Of a stretch of DNA of 64,000 bases, positions 3,984 to 8,087 are shown piece after piece (the first letter of the stretch is position 1; each line of letters starts with the position of its first letter). The notes beneath the pieces were generated by a model. The model searched no databases and was not told the origin of the DNA. It worked only from the letters and a program-made list of their open reading frames with translations. A program made the position numbers and the translations under genes. The stretch is from Cyanobacteriota bacterium (GTDB lineage Bacteria > Cyanobacteriota > Vampirovibrionia > JBFMGH01), in NCBI GenBank assembly GCA_040752795.1, contig JBFMGH010000608.1, positions 22,209 to 86,208 on the forward strand. The letters are read 5' to 3'.

Positions 3984-6900
3984 ATGGAAAACTCTAAAAC
4001 ATTAAAAATCTGGCAATTTATTTGCAGGCATAAATATATAATATTAGTAGCCTGTATACTTGTACTAGCAGCCATTCTGAGATACTCTGGCTACAACTGG
4101 GATCATTTATACAGTCTACATCCAGATGAAAGAGCTCTGGACCAGGCTGGTAACAGAATAGACTTTATGGAACTAAATCTTGATCCAGGCCTATATGCAT
4201 ATGGTTCTTTACCAATATATCTTGCCTGTATTGTCAATTTCATATGTGCAAAACTGTTGCCTCATTTTATGCTACTACAAAACTATCTTGTTATAGGAAG
4301 GTTGATTTCAGCCACTGCAGGCGTATTAACTGTACTGTTTGTTTATCTCATAGGCAACAAACTCTATAACAAGGAAACAGGCCTAATCTCCAGCTTTCTT
4401 TTGGCTATAGCTGTTATACACATTCAAAATAGTCATTTTGCCACAGTTGACATACTGTTAACATTTTTTATAACCGCTACTATTTATTATTTGATTGATA
4501 TCTATTATTCAAAATGTTCTTTGAAAACTTATTTAATAGTTTCAATATTAATCGGATTAGCTTTGGCTGTAAAAGCCTCCGCCGCCCCACTAGTTATCAT
4601 GTTTTTCATTTGCCATGTTATAAATCTGAGGAGAACAAAAAAAGCATTAAAACTTAAACCCTACTTATTTTTTGGTTTATGTGGAGTTATTGCCTTAATT
4701 ATAAACTTTATATCTCAACCTTATGCATATTTAAACATGCAACAGTATCTTAACTCTGTAATAGAACAGATAAATATGCAAAAACATGCTAATTCCTGTT
4801 TTCTTCAACAATATGTTGGCACTCCTTTCTTAATATATTACTTTAAAGAACTAACTCTTAGATGCCTGGGGCTTCCTCTGGGAATTTTTAGCATTATTAG
4901 TTTTTTTATAGCAATATTTTACAGCATTATTCATCCTGTAAAGTCCAAACATGTAATTCTTTTATTATGGGCTTTACCTTATTTTATAACTATAAATACT
5001 TTTGAATCAAAGTTTTTAAGATACATGTTACCATTAATTCCTTTTTATTGTCTCTTTACCGGATATTATTTTTTAGCGTTACTTGGTTATTTAAAGACAA
5101 TAAACATTAACAAATTTTTCAGATACACGCTTACTACTCTTTTTCTGGGCTATACTCTTTTTTATGCGCTGGCATTTTTCAGCATTTATATGAAACCTCA
5201 CACCTTTATAGAAAGCTCTATGTGGTTTTATAAAAACATTCCAGCTAATTCTGTAATACTCAGTCAACATTGGGAGGAAGGCTTTCCACAGCACATTAGA
5301 TCTATAGACAGAAAAGAATATGAAATAGTAGCATTAGAACTGTATGAACATTTTCAATGCGAAACTGAAGACGATAGAAAATCTGAATACCTCGCCAAAC
5401 ATCTTGAAAACGGAGAATATATTGTTGCTCCAACAAGACGATTATATGGTGCTACATACAACGTAAAAGAGCGATATCCTATAACAACAAAGTATTTTGA
5501 TTTACTATTTACCAATAGACTTGGATTTAAACTTATTAAAGATTTTTATTCCTATCCTTCTATTTTAGGTATTGAGTTTAACGATGATACATCAGACGAA
5601 TCTTTTTCAGTCTATGACCATCCCAAAGTTTTAATATTTAAAAAAGTAGAATCTTATTCAAAAGAAGAATATAAACAAATGCTTGAAGAAGAAGGAGAGT
5701 TGTCTTTAACAAAAGATCAAGCATTAAGTATACATAAAAAAGAAGCGGAAAAGGAAATTACATATTCTATTGTTGATGAAATAGCTATAATAATTATCTG
5801 GATTGTATTACTCGAACTCTTAAGTATTGTAGGATTTGTAATCAGCCATATTATATTTAAAAATAATAATGGTTCTATAATCTTTTTCTCTCATCTACTT
5901 GGGATATTAGTACTTTGTTACACAACATGGATACTTGCATCACTACATTTTATCAAATACAACTTCTTTTTCATTTTAATAATATTCCTTATCCTTTTAT
6001 CATTAAGCTTTTACTACTTATACATTAACAAGAATTCCGTTTTAGTGTGGGCTAAAAATAATATAGACACAATAGCACTATCTAAATTAGCTTTAATTAG
6101 CTGTTTCTTAATCTTCTTAATTTTTAGAACTCTCTCACCCGAGATTTTCTCTGGTGAAAAGCCCATGGATTTTGGAATTTTTAACAATTTGATAATAATA
6201 GACCACTTACCACCAGACGAAATATGGTTTAGTGGAAACAAATTAAACTATTATTATTTTGGCTATTTTATGTTTGCCACACTTGCAAAACTAACTTTCA
6301 TACCTGGCTTTTTTGCTTATAACCTGGCGCTAGGAACAATTGCTGGTCTAACTTTCTGCGCAAGTTGCGGAGTTCTCTATCTTCTTACAAGAAGCTACTA
6401 TTACAGCTTATTAGCAGGTATTTTTACTGTATTCCTGGGCAACATATCTGCAATCAGATTACTGATGGAAAAGCCTATTGACTATCACCTTTTCTGGGCA
6501 ACAACAAGGGTTATTCCTAAGACTATAAACGAATATCCTCTATGGAGTTTTATTTTTGGAGATCTGCATGGACACGTTTGCGTAATGCCAATTTTTATAT
6601 TCTTAATATATGTTGGGGTTTTTGCCTTTTTAAGGATAGTCAACAAAGAAACTATTACATTACCAGTTATATTGCTAACCGGTTTCATACTGGGAACTAT
6701 ATCAATAACAAACTCATGGGATTTTCCAGGTGCATCAGCAACATTATTCGTATGCTTCACCCTTGCACTTATTTTAACAACTAAAGAATATAAGCCCAGC
6801 AAAAATCTTCATTACCTGTTAAAACAATATTCATTACTATTTTGCATAGGCTTTTCAAGTTTTATATGGTTTTTACCATACTGGCTCTCCACTAAAAAAG

Positions 6901-8087
6901 TTTCTGTTATAGGATTCGGACGAGTTTACGAAAACGAGGCTGTTATGATCCAGGACTTTGTCTTTGTCTGGGGACTTTTCCTTTTTATCTTCGTAAGCTT
7001 ATTTCTCTTTGAAATATTTAAAGAAACACGAAAAAAACTTCATAAGAACTATTCTTACAACATCTCTTCCCTCTTTAGCTGGATTTTTATAACTTTTTTA
7101 ATACTTCTTTTATGTTTATTAATAATGCATTCAAACTTTTCTAGTTTAATTTTTTCTTCTTATTTTGAGGTATTAACATCTTCTTTAAATAACCCTATTT
7201 TAGAGTTTAACCGGTATTTATTAATGATATCTGACTATTTTGGCGCATATACCACTATTATTTTTAATGCTGTTTTAATTATATTAGCTATTGCAACATT
7301 TATAATTCTTAAAGAAAAGATTATAAAACTTATTTGCGGGTTAATAACTTTTGGTTTAATCATCACTTTCTTCACAGAAACATTCTTTATTTATGATCAT
7401 ATGAATACTATATTCAAATTTTTCCTTGAAGTATGGTATATTTTTGCTATTTGCGCCACGTATACACTCTATTATATCTTTAAACCTTATTACTATGCTT
7501 TTAGAGCTTCTGCTAATATTTATATAGAATCTTTAAAACTCATATGGTTTATACCTGCTGCTGTTCTCCTTTCACTTGCATGTTTTACATCTATAGCTGC
7601 TGTTGTTGGCTTTAGTTTTACAGATAAAACCAATGGGTATAAACCAGTAAAAACCATTAACGGATTAGCATACCTCAAATACAGTAATCCATCAGAGTAT
7701 CAAGCAGTACAATGGATTAACAAAAACATAAAAGACAAGAATTGTGTAATATTAGAGGCAACTGGTATTAGCTATAGTGATTACACACGAATAGTTACAA
7801 ATACTGGTATTCCTACTGTTGCAGGATGGACCCATCATTTAACTCAACGTGCAGTAGAAAGAGATGATATAAAAAGAAGAGTTGAAGACATAGAAACTAT
7901 TTATTCAACAGAAGACACAGAAAAAGCCTATAACTTACTAAATAAATATCGCATAAATTATGTTTATATAGGACAACTAGAACTAAAAGACTATGGATTA
8001 AAAGGCATTAATAAGTTTAAAAACAACCCTGACAAATTTAAACTCATTTACTCTAACAAACAGGTAAAATTTTACGAAGTTCTTTAA
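3984..8087 (+). CDS. Giant polytopic GT-C-like membrane glycosyltransferase candidate with YYYxG motif (DUF2298/Chlor_Arch_YYY-like), ArnT/PMT-like N-terminal module
   Basis: 1367 aa with more than 25 predicted TM segments. The N-terminal loop carries an HPDER motif after TM1, as in ArnT/PMT GT-C enzymes. The central region carries NYYYFGY. A soluble C-terminal domain (about 7.6-8.08 kb) follows the last TM. It is last in the operon with the DPA-like genes. Confidence 0.6.
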   Translation: MENSKTLKIWQFICRHKYIILVACILVLAAILRYSGYNWDHLYSLHPDERALDQAGNRIDFMELNLDPGLYAYGSLPIYLACIVNFICAKLLPHFMLLQNYLVIGRLISATAGVLTVLFVYLIGNKLYNKETGLISSFLLAIAVIHIQNSHFATVDILLTFFITATIYYLIDIYYSKCSLKTYLIVSILIGLALAVKASAAPLVIMFFICHVINLRRTKKALKLKPYLFFGLCGVIALIINFISQPYAYLNMQQYLNSVIEQINMQKHANSCFLQQYVGTPFLIYYFKELTLRCLGLPLGIFSIISFFIAIFYSIIHPVKSKHVILLLWALPYFITINTFESKFLRYMLPLIPFYCLFTGYYFLALLGYLKTININKFFRYTLTTLFLGYTLFYALAFFSIYMKPHTFIESSMWFYKNIPANSVILSQHWEEGFPQHIRSIDRKEYEIVALELYEHFQCETEDDRKSEYLAKHLENGEYIVAPTRRLYGATYNVKERYPITTKYFDLLFTNRLGFKLIKDFYSYPSILGIEFNDDTSDESFSVYDHPKVLIFKKVESYSKEEYKQMLEEEGELSLTKDQALSIHKKEAEKEITYSIVDEIAIIIIWIVLLELLSIVGFVISHIIFKNNNGSIIFFSHLLGILVLCYTTWILASLHFIKYNFFFILIIFLILLSLSFYYLYINKNSVLVWAKNNIDTIALSKLALISCFLIFLIFRTLSPEIFSGEKPMDFGIFNNLIIIDHLPPDEIWFSGNKLNYYYFGYFMFATLAKLTFIPGFFAYNLALGTIAGLTFCASCGVLYLLTRSYYYSLLAGIFTVFLGNISAIRLLMEKPIDYHLFWATTRVIPKTINEYPLWSFIFGDLHGHVCVMPIFIFLIYVGVFAFLRIVNKETITLPVILLTGFILGTISITNSWDFPGASATLFVCFTLALILTTKEYKPSKNLHYLLKQYSLLFCIGFSSFIWFLPYWLSTKKVSVIGFGRVYENEAVMIQDFVFVWGLFLFIFVSLFLFEIFKETRKKLHKNYSYNISSLFSWIFITFLILLLCLLIMHSNFSSLIFSSYFEVLTSSLNNPILEFNRYLLMISDYFGAYTTIIFNAVLIILAIATFIILKEKIIKLICGLITFGLIITFFTETFFIYDHMNTIFKFFLEVWYIFAICATYTLYYIFKPYYYAFRASANIYIESLKLIWFIPAAVLLSLACFTSIAAVVGFSFTDKTNGYKPVKTINGLAYLKYSNPSEYQAVQWINKNIKDKNCVILEATGISYSDYTRIVTNTGIPTVAGWTHHLTQRAVERDDIKRRVEDIETIYSTEDTEKAYNLLNKYRINYVYIGQLELKDYGLKGINKFKNNPDKFKLIYSNKQVKFYEVL

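Follow-up and report, generated by a model that had tools for sequence, protein, structure and literature searches.

The window analysed here is a 64,000-nucleotide stretch of DNA from a Cyanobacteriota bacterium (GTDB lineage Vampirovibrionia; JBFMGH01; assembly GCA_040752795.1, contig JBFMGH010000608.1, positions 22,209 to 86,208), and it carries a gene for a membrane protein of 1367 amino acids (aa). We found that this protein consists of two complete glycosyltransferase units of the GT-C class joined head to tail: a PMT_2-type unit (module 1, residues 1-595) and a DUF2298 unit (module 2, residues 596-1367). The gene directly follows a cassette of three genes that encode a UbiA-family phosphoribosyltransferase, a DprE1-like oxidase and a short-chain dehydrogenase (SDR). 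The protein is very probably a tandem GT-C enzyme that depends on polyprenyl-phosphate sugars. In its full form, the explanation that we favour by a modest balance of probability is a bifunctional, outward-facing tandem GT-C that is fed a polyprenyl-phosphate pentofuranose by the upstream cassette; taken separately, the proposal that this pentofuranose is the specific donor has about even odds.

A preliminary description of the gene, made from the sequence alone, had presented a polytopic protein with an ArnT/PMT-like N-terminal module, a YYY-family core and a soluble C-terminal domain. The gene begins with ATG, and a frame that stays open for so long is far more than chance would produce at the 33% G+C of the window, so the open reading frame (ORF) is taken as real. 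An identical protein has been deposited under the title 'MAG: DUF2298 domain-containing protein [Cyanobacteriota bacterium]'. Pfam assigns residues 99-239 to PMT_2 (PF13231; E 1.7e-13, 51.6 bits, the cut-off being 26.1) and residues 644-1154 to DUF2298 (PF10060; E 1.4e-80, 272 bits against a cut-off of 27.8). The NCBIfam model TIGR03662 (Chlor_Arch_YYY), which the preliminary description had expected to match, covers residues 600-1366 with 396.4 bits against a cut-off of 300.25, and the match extends over profile positions 2-726 of 727. The YYY core therefore belongs to the family that had been proposed, but it is a second complete GT-C rather than the core of a single enzyme: standalone DUF2298 proteins of 700-780 aa span the whole TIGR03662 profile, which makes the YYY region a self-contained unit. 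Hydropathy analysis gave 32 overlapping windows, which were resolved to ∼27 transmembrane (TM) helices where at least 25 hydrophobic segments had been anticipated. The helices form two distinct membrane bundles with a hydrophilic domain after each. One of these domains is the hydrophilic tail of roughly 150 aa that had been recognised before, and the other, at residues 404-595, had been overlooked. An assembly or frameshift artefact was considered and rejected, as the same architecture is found in more than 1600 proteins of independent origin.

The two halves of the protein were modelled separately with AlphaFold2, which returned a pLDDT of 91.2 and a pTM of 0.92 for residues 1-600, and a pLDDT of 92.5 and a pTM of 0.94 for residues 585-1367. 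When the models were compared with the PDB using Foldseek, GT-C enzymes alone were matched by both halves at E <= 0.001. The N-terminal half recovered AglB (1e-9), STT3, ALG12, ArnT (2e-6), PglB, Pmt4 (1.6e-5) and PIG-U, a subunit of the GPI transamidase. The DUF2298 half recovered the C-mannosyltransferase DPY19 (2e-6), AglB (6e-5), AftA (1e-4) and STT3, with PglB beyond the threshold at 6e-3; by TM-score, AftA was the best match of module 2 (TMt 0.58), and structures other than GT-C enzymes appeared only at E > 0.1 and with low probability. The fold of the soluble domain at the end of module 2 is weakly matched by the globular C-terminal domain of AglB-S2 (3vu0, E 0.017, TMt 0.52). In the predicted models, both modules adopt the GT-C fold, in line with the GT-C-like structure that the preliminary description had foreseen.

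At the sequence level the links to known GT-C enzymes are sparse. No PDB entry was found with the fusion protein as a single query. A profile built from 60 homologous fusions (29-58% identity) was dominated by the NHL propeller of longer homologues, and the profile without NHL matched ArnT (5ezm) alone and weakly, at E 0.004 over ArnT residues 111-376. In this alignment the invariant D156 of module 1 ('HFATVD') stands opposite 'HFNTLD' of ArnT. The proposed ArnT/PMT-like nature of the N-terminal module is thus borne out by the PMT_2 match, the profile match and the Foldseek results. Precomputed matches to PF02366 (PMT) exist for some homologues; for the window protein itself, Pfam reported neither PF02366 nor a MIR domain, and NCBIfam no ArnT equivalog, at E <= 1. 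Neither database reported a match of the fusion protein to the Emb/Aft families (Arabinose_trans, AftA and others), and the link to AftA, AftB and Emb found by Foldseek is a likeness at the level of the fold. An internal duplication visible by sequence was rejected, with a probability below 1% in the hhalign comparison of module 1 with module 2.

The distribution of charges favours a topology with the N-terminus inside: the short loops hold 34 lysines and arginines on the inner side versus 16 on the outer side. For the loops of module 2 to lie outside, the number of helices in module 1 has to be odd. Under this model the HPDER loop, all other conserved loops and both soluble domains would face the outside of the cytoplasmic membrane, which agrees with the extracytoplasmic position suggested earlier for the HPDER loop and the C-terminal domain. 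Each GT-C core would then present an acidic residue in its first external loop.

Conservation across the 60 fusions points to candidate active sites in these loops. The invariant columns of module 1 are R33, H46, P47, D48, E49, R106, Q148, D156, K197, R346 and Y347, followed in its soluble domain by W430, D538, E539, S540, H546, P547 and K548; this domain also contains HWEEG at residues 429-433, for which the family consensus is HWDEGFP. In module 2 the invariant columns are E725, M728, D729, Y756, G760, E850, P852, W854, D860, L861, H862, H864, D1138, M1140, N1141, T1142, F1144 and K1145, and in its soluble domain E1258, R1269, G1281, W1282, H1285, Q1288 and R1289, within the conserved motif NTGxPTVxGW..H..QR. 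The HPDER and NYYYFGY motifs pointed out previously were both found near their described places. We compared module 2 with 34 standalone DUF2298 paralogues that are 22-29% identical to it. All 34 retain E725, D729, the YYY triplet, E850, H862, H864, D1138, N1141 and K1145, and residue 860 is either D or C among them. The site of module 2 thus has two components: the first external loop contributes an acidic pair, and the next one ends with a D/C-x-H-x-H motif. PglB, AglB and other GT-Cs of the oligosaccharyltransferase (OST) type carry D...DxD/DxH metal ligands at equivalent loop positions. The invariant set of DUF2298 has the appearance of a site for catalysis or metal binding, carried by loops predicted to face outward.

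The three genes upstream of the fusion are separated from one another and from the fusion gene by gaps of 12, 1 and 88 bp, and there is no terminator-like site before the GT-C gene. The preliminary description had the protein fused downstream of a pathway resembling that for decaprenylphosphoryl arabinose; it is indeed the product of the next gene, not fused to the pathway. The UbiA protein scores above the cut-off of NF008977 (251 bits versus 234), the NCBIfam model for decaprenylphosphoryl-5-phosphoribose (DPPR) synthase, and aligns over residues 5-285 with the solved decaprenyl-phosphate phosphoribosyltransferase 8j8j (E 1.3e-41). The DprE1-like protein aligns end to end with DprE1 of M. 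smegmatis (4aut, E 3e-96). It retains the lysine of '...AKDSR', which we take to be the equivalent of Lys418, and has alanine in place of the cysteine of '...NVCVDFP', presumably the residue targeted by benzothiazinones. If this substitution is read correctly, the enzyme is expected to be insensitive to the covalent inhibitors of that class. That UbiA and the DprE1-like protein are true homologues of Rv3806c and DprE1, together with the tight spacing and the lack of a terminator, supports a donor supplied by the cassette.

In the mechanism that we favour, the upstream enzymes would produce a polyprenyl-phosphate pentofuranose at the membrane's cytoplasmic face. Phosphoribosyl pyrophosphate and polyprenyl phosphate would be converted to polyprenyl-phosphate ribose, which would be oxidised at C2' by the DprE1-like protein and reduced by the SDR, the product being most likely D-arabinofuranose. 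The lipid-linked pentofuranose would then reach the outer face, where modules 1 and 2 may act in turn in two transfers, such as a priming step and an extension step after it. The recipient would be an acceptor in the envelope, either a protein or a glycan. The analysis establishes the domains, the GT-C fold of each module, the conserved residues and the order and distribution of the genes, from which the topology, the catalytic competence of the two modules, the nature of the donor and the sequence of the two reactions are inferred.

Coordinates of the fusion gene, its parts and conserved motifs, and the upstream genes (positions in the window)
Feature	Position	Strand	Basis or remark
Tandem GT-C gene	3984..8087, stop codon included	+	ATG start, 1367 aa
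Module 1 membrane bundle, PMT_2-type GT-C, ∼11 TM	3984..5192, residues 1-403	+	PMT_2 match, model, Foldseek
HPDER, residues 46-50	4119..4133	+	Predicted to lie in the first external loop of module 1; H46, P47, D48 and E49 invariant
Soluble domain 1, ∼190 aa, alpha/beta, predicted extracytoplasmic	5193..5768, residues 404-595	+	Hydropathy; DSSP strands and helices in the model
Module 2 membrane bundle, DUF2298/TIGR03662, ∼3 linker + 13 TM	5769..7619, residues 596-1212	+	Hidden Markov models, structure model
GEKPMDF, acidic pair E725/D729	6153..6173	+	Predicted to lie in the first external loop of the 13-TM core; pair invariant
NYYYFGY, residues 755-761, with the YYY (756-758) that gives the family its name	6246..6266	+	YYY invariant in standalone paralogues
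NEYPLW...DLHGH	6528..6575	+	End of the second predicted external loop; E850, H862 and H864 invariant
DHMNTIFKF	7395..7421	+	Late predicted external loop; D1138, N1141 and K1145 invariant
Soluble domain 2, 155 aa, predicted extracytoplasmic	7620..8084, residues 1213-1367	+	Hydropathy; invariant columns
Stand-alone cyclic-nucleotide-binding (cNMP) protein, 144 aa	301..735	+	PF00027, E 3e-24
UbiA-family polyprenyl-phosphate phosphoribosyltransferase, DPPR-synthase-like (Rv3806c homologue)	928..1815	+	NF008977
DprE1-like FAD oxidase (polyprenyl-P-ribose 2'-oxidase homologue)	1828..3162	+	NF053785; DprE1 4aut
SDR in DprE2 position, presumed 2'-keto reductase	3164..3895	+	PRK07102, 327 bits versus 267

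The link between fusion and donor synthesis was explored from both sides, beginning with 79 metagenome loci that encode fusions of 26-50% identity. In 12 loci the fusion has a DPPR-synthase-like UbiA at a distance of up to ∼5 kb. These loci are spread over six of the 19 clusters formed at >=60% identity, with four or more different gene orders; this recurrence in varied arrangements supports a polyprenyl-phosphate sugar as donor. The UbiA neighbours that were tested matched DPPR-synthase models best, with 175-224 bits, around the cut-offs, and with 281 bits, above the cut-off, for the UbiA of locus L088. In eight loci (L163:5276-7719, L096:7811-9957, L112, L114, L140, L144, L150 and L157) UbiA, a DUF362 gene and an NHL-bearing fusion follow one another, and the presence of UbiA and DUF362 without DprE1 and SDR hints at a lipid donor of the ribose rather than the arabinose type. 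Loci L088 and L118 share the order GT2, DUF2298, fusion, Agl23-like protein with NHL, FAD oxidoreductase, UbiA and DUF362, and their GT2 matches ArnC-like, Dol-P-hexose-transferase and PpgS models. A GT2 of the polyprenyl-phosphate-sugar-synthase type near the fusion supports this class of donors. A gene for the synthesis of polyprenyl-monophosphate sugars adjoining these GT-Cs is thus a recurring theme. The DprE1/SDR epimerisation step, found at one of the 79 loci (the Vampirovibrionia-type locus L089), is specific to the lineage of the window.

Other genes recur beside the fusions as well. A second, standalone DUF2298 protein is encoded nearby in 41 of the 79 loci, an Agl23-like (TIGR03663-type) protein in 24, and a methyltransferase of ∼230 aa adjoins the fusion in 16. 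A cluster comprising a standalone DUF2298 protein, in some cases the methyltransferase, the PMT_2+DUF2298 fusion and an Agl23-like PMT_2 protein with NHL was seen repeatedly (L004, L088, L090-L095 and many others).

From the side of the cassette, the window DprE1-like protein is 56-63% identical to thousands of proteins in many phyla. We examined 80 genome loci of other phyla, among them Bacteroidota, Pontiella/Kiritimatiellales, Campylobacterales, Anaerolineae, Ignavibacteriales and Acidobacteriota. The UbiA-DprE1-like-SDR trio is conserved across these loci, and the SDR is the constant partner of the DprE1-like protein in most of them. Of the 50 loci with sufficient flanking sequence, 28 contain a polytopic ORF of 450 aa or more no further than 2.5 kb from the cassette, and the SDR of L007 is followed by a clear PMT_2 protein; a cassette followed by a polytopic protein in other phyla supports the proposed supply of the fusion by the cassette. 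As a separate observation, 22 of these 28 ORFs belong to a single family of ∼550 aa, with examples in Chitinophagaceae and other Bacteroidota (L025:7368-9026 on the minus strand, L024, L042, L044), for which no Pfam or NCBIfam match was found. Its members are candidates for unrecognised glycosyltransferases that use the cassette product in Bacteroidota, and that they are GT-Cs is a guess.

Several observations weigh against the pentofuranose donor. The upstream pathway contains the expected UbiA equivalog, DprE1 homologue and SDR, but the DprE1-like protein falls below the equivalog cut-off of NF053785 (450 bits versus 500) and the SDR is not a DprE2 equivalog (NF053786, 163 bits versus a cut-off of 250). 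Among the ORFs at positions 1-14000, Pfam revealed no Rv3807c-like DPPR phosphatase and no GtrA-like (Rv3789) protein. For three of four distant fusions that were looked up, neither UbiA nor a DprE gene is present within 8 kb, and the fourth has UbiA only, without the DprE1-like and SDR genes. None of the 80 DprE1-like loci of other phyla has a DUF2298 or module 1 match within 10 kb, and a general partnership of DprE1 with DUF2298 was rejected on this ground. Among 11 close relatives, three (L087, L168 and L169) lack the cassette at the same gyrB-adjacent fusion site. In addition, DUF2298 is essentially unstudied, with two incidental mentions and no biochemical data on any member found in the literature.

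Gene order among close relatives illustrates both the link and its looseness. The order cNMP-UbiA-DprE1-like-SDR-fusion-gyrB is retained in two relatives of 50-58% identity (P0002 and P0007), and the cNMP gene lies 5' of the cassette in L001 and L002. Since the entire neighbourhood is syntenic in this clade (45-58% identity), its gene order is not independent evidence. In L169 (P0010) the cNMP gene (L169:5509-5937) is followed directly by the fusion, in L087 (P0011) both the cNMP gene and the cassette are missing, and in L168 (P0006) a divergent 697-aa PMT_2 gene replaces the cassette. With three relatives lacking it at the same site, the trio behaves as a three-gene insertion or deletion. The cNMP protein may be a regulator whose partner is the GT-C gene and not the sugar genes. 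An extra PMT_2 protein of 675-697 aa is encoded divergently upstream of the cassette or the fusion in two relatives (L002:2628-4655 and L168:3814-5907, both on the minus strand); it has no NCBIfam match, and a tblastn search found no counterpart in the window.

These observations give most weight to one competitor, in which the same tandem GT-C uses another donor, for example a polyprenyl-phosphate hexose made by a GT2 encoded elsewhere, and the trio happened to land between the cNMP gene and the fusion in one sub-lineage. We consider it improbable, though deserving to be taken seriously. Besides the gain or loss of the cassette, it is favoured by the high conservation of a cassette that is widespread without DUF2298, by the methyltransferase, standalone DUF2298 and Agl23-like genes that adjoin distant fusions, and by the GT2 of L088 and L118 with its ArnC-like and Dol-P-hexose-transferase-like matches. 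A chance landing is at odds with the co-orientation and tight spacing of the inserted trio and the lack of a terminator behind it. The rest of the 64-kb window consists of housekeeping genes and holds no other large polytopic protein or GT-C candidate that could consume the cassette product, and a DPPR-synthase-like UbiA recurs beside the fusion in six independent clusters. The cassette link is thus real but not obligatory. As for the function put forward in the preliminary description, a glycosyltransferase dependent on polyprenyl-phosphate sugars is still the best reading, and the tie to the arabinose pathway is weaker than had been thought, with the cassette being an insertion or deletion and UbiA the only recurrent part of it.

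It is less probable still, and in our view unlikely, that the labour is divided, with one module, most likely module 1, translocating the polyprenyl-phosphate sugar and module 2 (DUF2298) transferring it. The precedent is Agl23 of H. hispanica, a PMT_2-like protein of the TIGR03663 family, whose current name is 'flippase activity-associated protein Agl23'. In PMC11182771, this GT-C-like archaeal protein is described as a putative hexose-phosphate-dolichol flippase, and purified Agl23 moved a lipid-linked oligosaccharide across proteoliposome membranes. Translocation combined with transfer has likewise been proposed for the GT-C protein TfpW (bioRxiv 10.1101/2020.04.19.049825). Agl23-like genes adjoin DUF2298 genes in 24 of the 79 fusion loci, a profile of module 1 picks up Agl23-like ORFs weakly (27-58 bits), and the window operon has no dedicated flippase or GtrA-like gene among the ORFs at positions 1-14000. 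The preliminary description had paired TIGR03663 with TIGR03662 as models to be matched. Module 1 does not belong to TIGR03663, however: NCBIfam gave no match at E <= 1 (the cut-off is 126), and a BLASTP comparison with an Agl23-like protein that itself scores 281 bits to TIGR03663 gave E 1.3. The two represent distinct PMT_2 subfamilies. Module 1 also keeps the invariant acidic pair of HPDE, D156 and basic residues, as catalytic GT-Cs do, and has a conserved soluble domain of its own, and the flippase role of Agl23 is itself backed by few experiments.

An OST-like role, in which one or both modules would transfer a preassembled, lipid-pyrophosphate-linked glycan en bloc to proteins, draws on the top structural matches of module 1 (AglB and STT3, E 1e-9 to 1e-7), the AglB, STT3 and PglB matches and weakly AglB-like C-terminal domain of module 2, the HWDEGFP motif ∼25 residues past the last helix of module 1 that recalls WWDYG, the position of D-x-H-x-H in module 2 where OSTs have DxD/DxH, and the NHL or TPR C-terminal domains of relatives that suit protein binding, but it is very improbable given that the window protein has no W[WYF]D[YWF]G match (HWEEG at 429-433 being the nearest sequence) and no STT3 match in Pfam, its domains being PMT_2 and DUF2298, that the neighbours scanned include no Wzx/Wzy or initiating phosphoglycosyltransferase, and that the genes recurring beside the fusion make polyprenyl-monophosphate sugars.

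A tandem GT-C fed by the cassette would have parallels among characterised enzymes. Mycobacterial AftA, AftB, AftD and EmbA/B/C share the GT-C fold and the outward active site and use a polyprenyl-phosphate D-arabinofuranose donor that is made by Rv3806c, DprE1 and DprE2. EmbA and EmbB work together as two GT-Cs in a heterodimer, and the window fusion resembles this arrangement in covalent form. Its soluble domains are unlike those of the Emb and Aft proteins, with no carbohydrate-binding module detected, and their hosts are mycolate-containing actinobacteria, whereas the window organism is a bacterium of the Melainabacteria group. Compared with ArnT, which has 13 helices, and with the PMT_2 enzymes related to GT83 and GT39, module 1 (∼11 helices) differs in its soluble domain and in having a second enzyme behind it. 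STT3, AglB, PglB and DPY19 are the best overall structural matches of both modules, and their 13-helix core with a C-terminal globular domain is shared by module 2; they differ in genomic context and have no similarity to the modules at the sequence level. Finally, genes of the TIGR03662 and TIGR03663 families occur as pairs, and the window protein can be seen as a covalent version of this recurrent partnership of a PMT_2-type and a YYY-type protein.

The closest functional precedent is TfpW of P. aeruginosa with the D-arabinofuranose cluster PsPA7_6245-6251. For the addition of D-arabinofuranose to pilin, this GT-C depends on homologues of Rv3806c, DprE1 and DprE2 (bioRxiv 10.1101/2020.04.19.049825), and it is proposed to join translocation, polymerisation and transfer in one protein. 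Like the proposed window enzyme it is a GT-C of a Gram-negative organism, and its C-terminal TPR domain has counterparts in relatives of the window protein. It differs in being a single GT-C of 646 aa, with ∼11 helices and the TPR domain, whose gene stands beside the pilin gene and not beside the sugar genes, whereas the window protein comprises two GT-C units and has neither a TPR domain nor a pilin neighbour.

Beyond the fusion and the cassette, the window contains a replication block on the opposite strand, 3' of the fusion, with gyrB, a DciA-like gene, recF and dnaN (8114-14730), in which dnaN has no adjacent dnaA. A gene-free stretch of 850 bp (14731-15581) separates dnaN from accA. A promoter scan of the operon gave matches at chance level and was uninformative, and an Rfam scan detected a single tRNA and no riboswitch near the operon. 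This tRNA-Gln (UUG; 22644-22717, plus strand) lies inside the 5' end of the ORF for ribosomal protein L25/TL5 (22595-23365). Given this overlap, and Pfam matches that begin at residue 60, the true start of L25/TL5 must lie downstream of the tRNA. The LarC-like (Ni_insertion) ORF at 23430-24218 (minus strand, 262 aa) spans positions 1-234 of the 375 in the profile and may be a truncated or split gene. Pfam recognises nothing at E <= 1e-5 in four ORFs of 326-637 aa: 17477-19384 (minus), 32932-33912 (plus), 38805-40175 (plus) and 42721-44634 (minus).

The gene belongs to a family that is already catalogued, as DUF2298/TIGR03662, and uncharacterised. The preliminary description had the family sporadically distributed in Archaea, Chloroflexi and a few Firmicutes. 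This is not what we found: the DUF2298 half has 6011 cluster representatives (50% clustering) at E <= 1e-3 and 4445 at E <= 1e-10, and the few of the more than 1600 PMT_2+DUF2298 fusions whose source is named come from Binatia, Acidobacteriota, Deltaproteobacteria and Vampirovibrionia, one relative with 57% identity bearing the last label. The best matches fall into length classes of ∼700-780 aa (standalone), ∼950-1000 aa, ∼1300-1400 aa (PMT_2 fusions), ∼1550-1670 aa (fusions with a C-terminal NHL propeller) and giants of 2400-2750 aa. The giants P0248 (2744 aa) and P0243 (2521 aa) carry two DUF2298 units and C-terminal TPR repeats, and multi-GT-C polyproteins thus extend beyond the two-unit fusion. 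By predicted topology the NHL and TPR domains of the relatives lie outside the cytoplasm, and by analogy with TfpW and the TMTC enzymes this may point to proteins as acceptors. Both kinds of domain are missing from the window protein.

Three points are new: DUF2298 is recognised as a GT-C unit whose conserved site is defined, the two units stand in tandem, and a link to UbiA recurs; no publication on them was found in the literature searched. DUF2298 emerges with a predicted GT-C fold and a conserved acidic/histidine site of its own, is regularly found fused to proteins of the PMT_2/Agl23 type or encoded beside them, and lies repeatedly near genes for polyprenyl-phosphate sugars. A domain of unknown function thereby becomes an enzyme hypothesis with named residues. 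DUF2298 proteins are also candidates for outward-facing transferases that would use the lipid-linked hexoses of archaeal Agl22/Agl23. The DprE1-type pathway is a major drug target in tuberculosis, and its distribution suggests that it feeds envelope glycans in many non-actinobacterial phyla. More speculatively, and with the chances running against it, DUF2298 may be a metal-dependent GT-C family that, together with its PMT_2/Agl23 partners, serves a phylum-spanning, outward-facing glycosylation that is fed by polyprenyl-phosphate pentofuranoses from DPPR-synthase-like UbiA enzymes. Glycans of D-arabinofuranose or D-ribofuranose in the envelope have so far been regarded mainly as a mycobacterial hallmark. 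If this view is true, such glycans would be present in Melainabacteria and many uncultured phyla, and the fused enzyme would perform translocation, priming and extension in one polypeptide.

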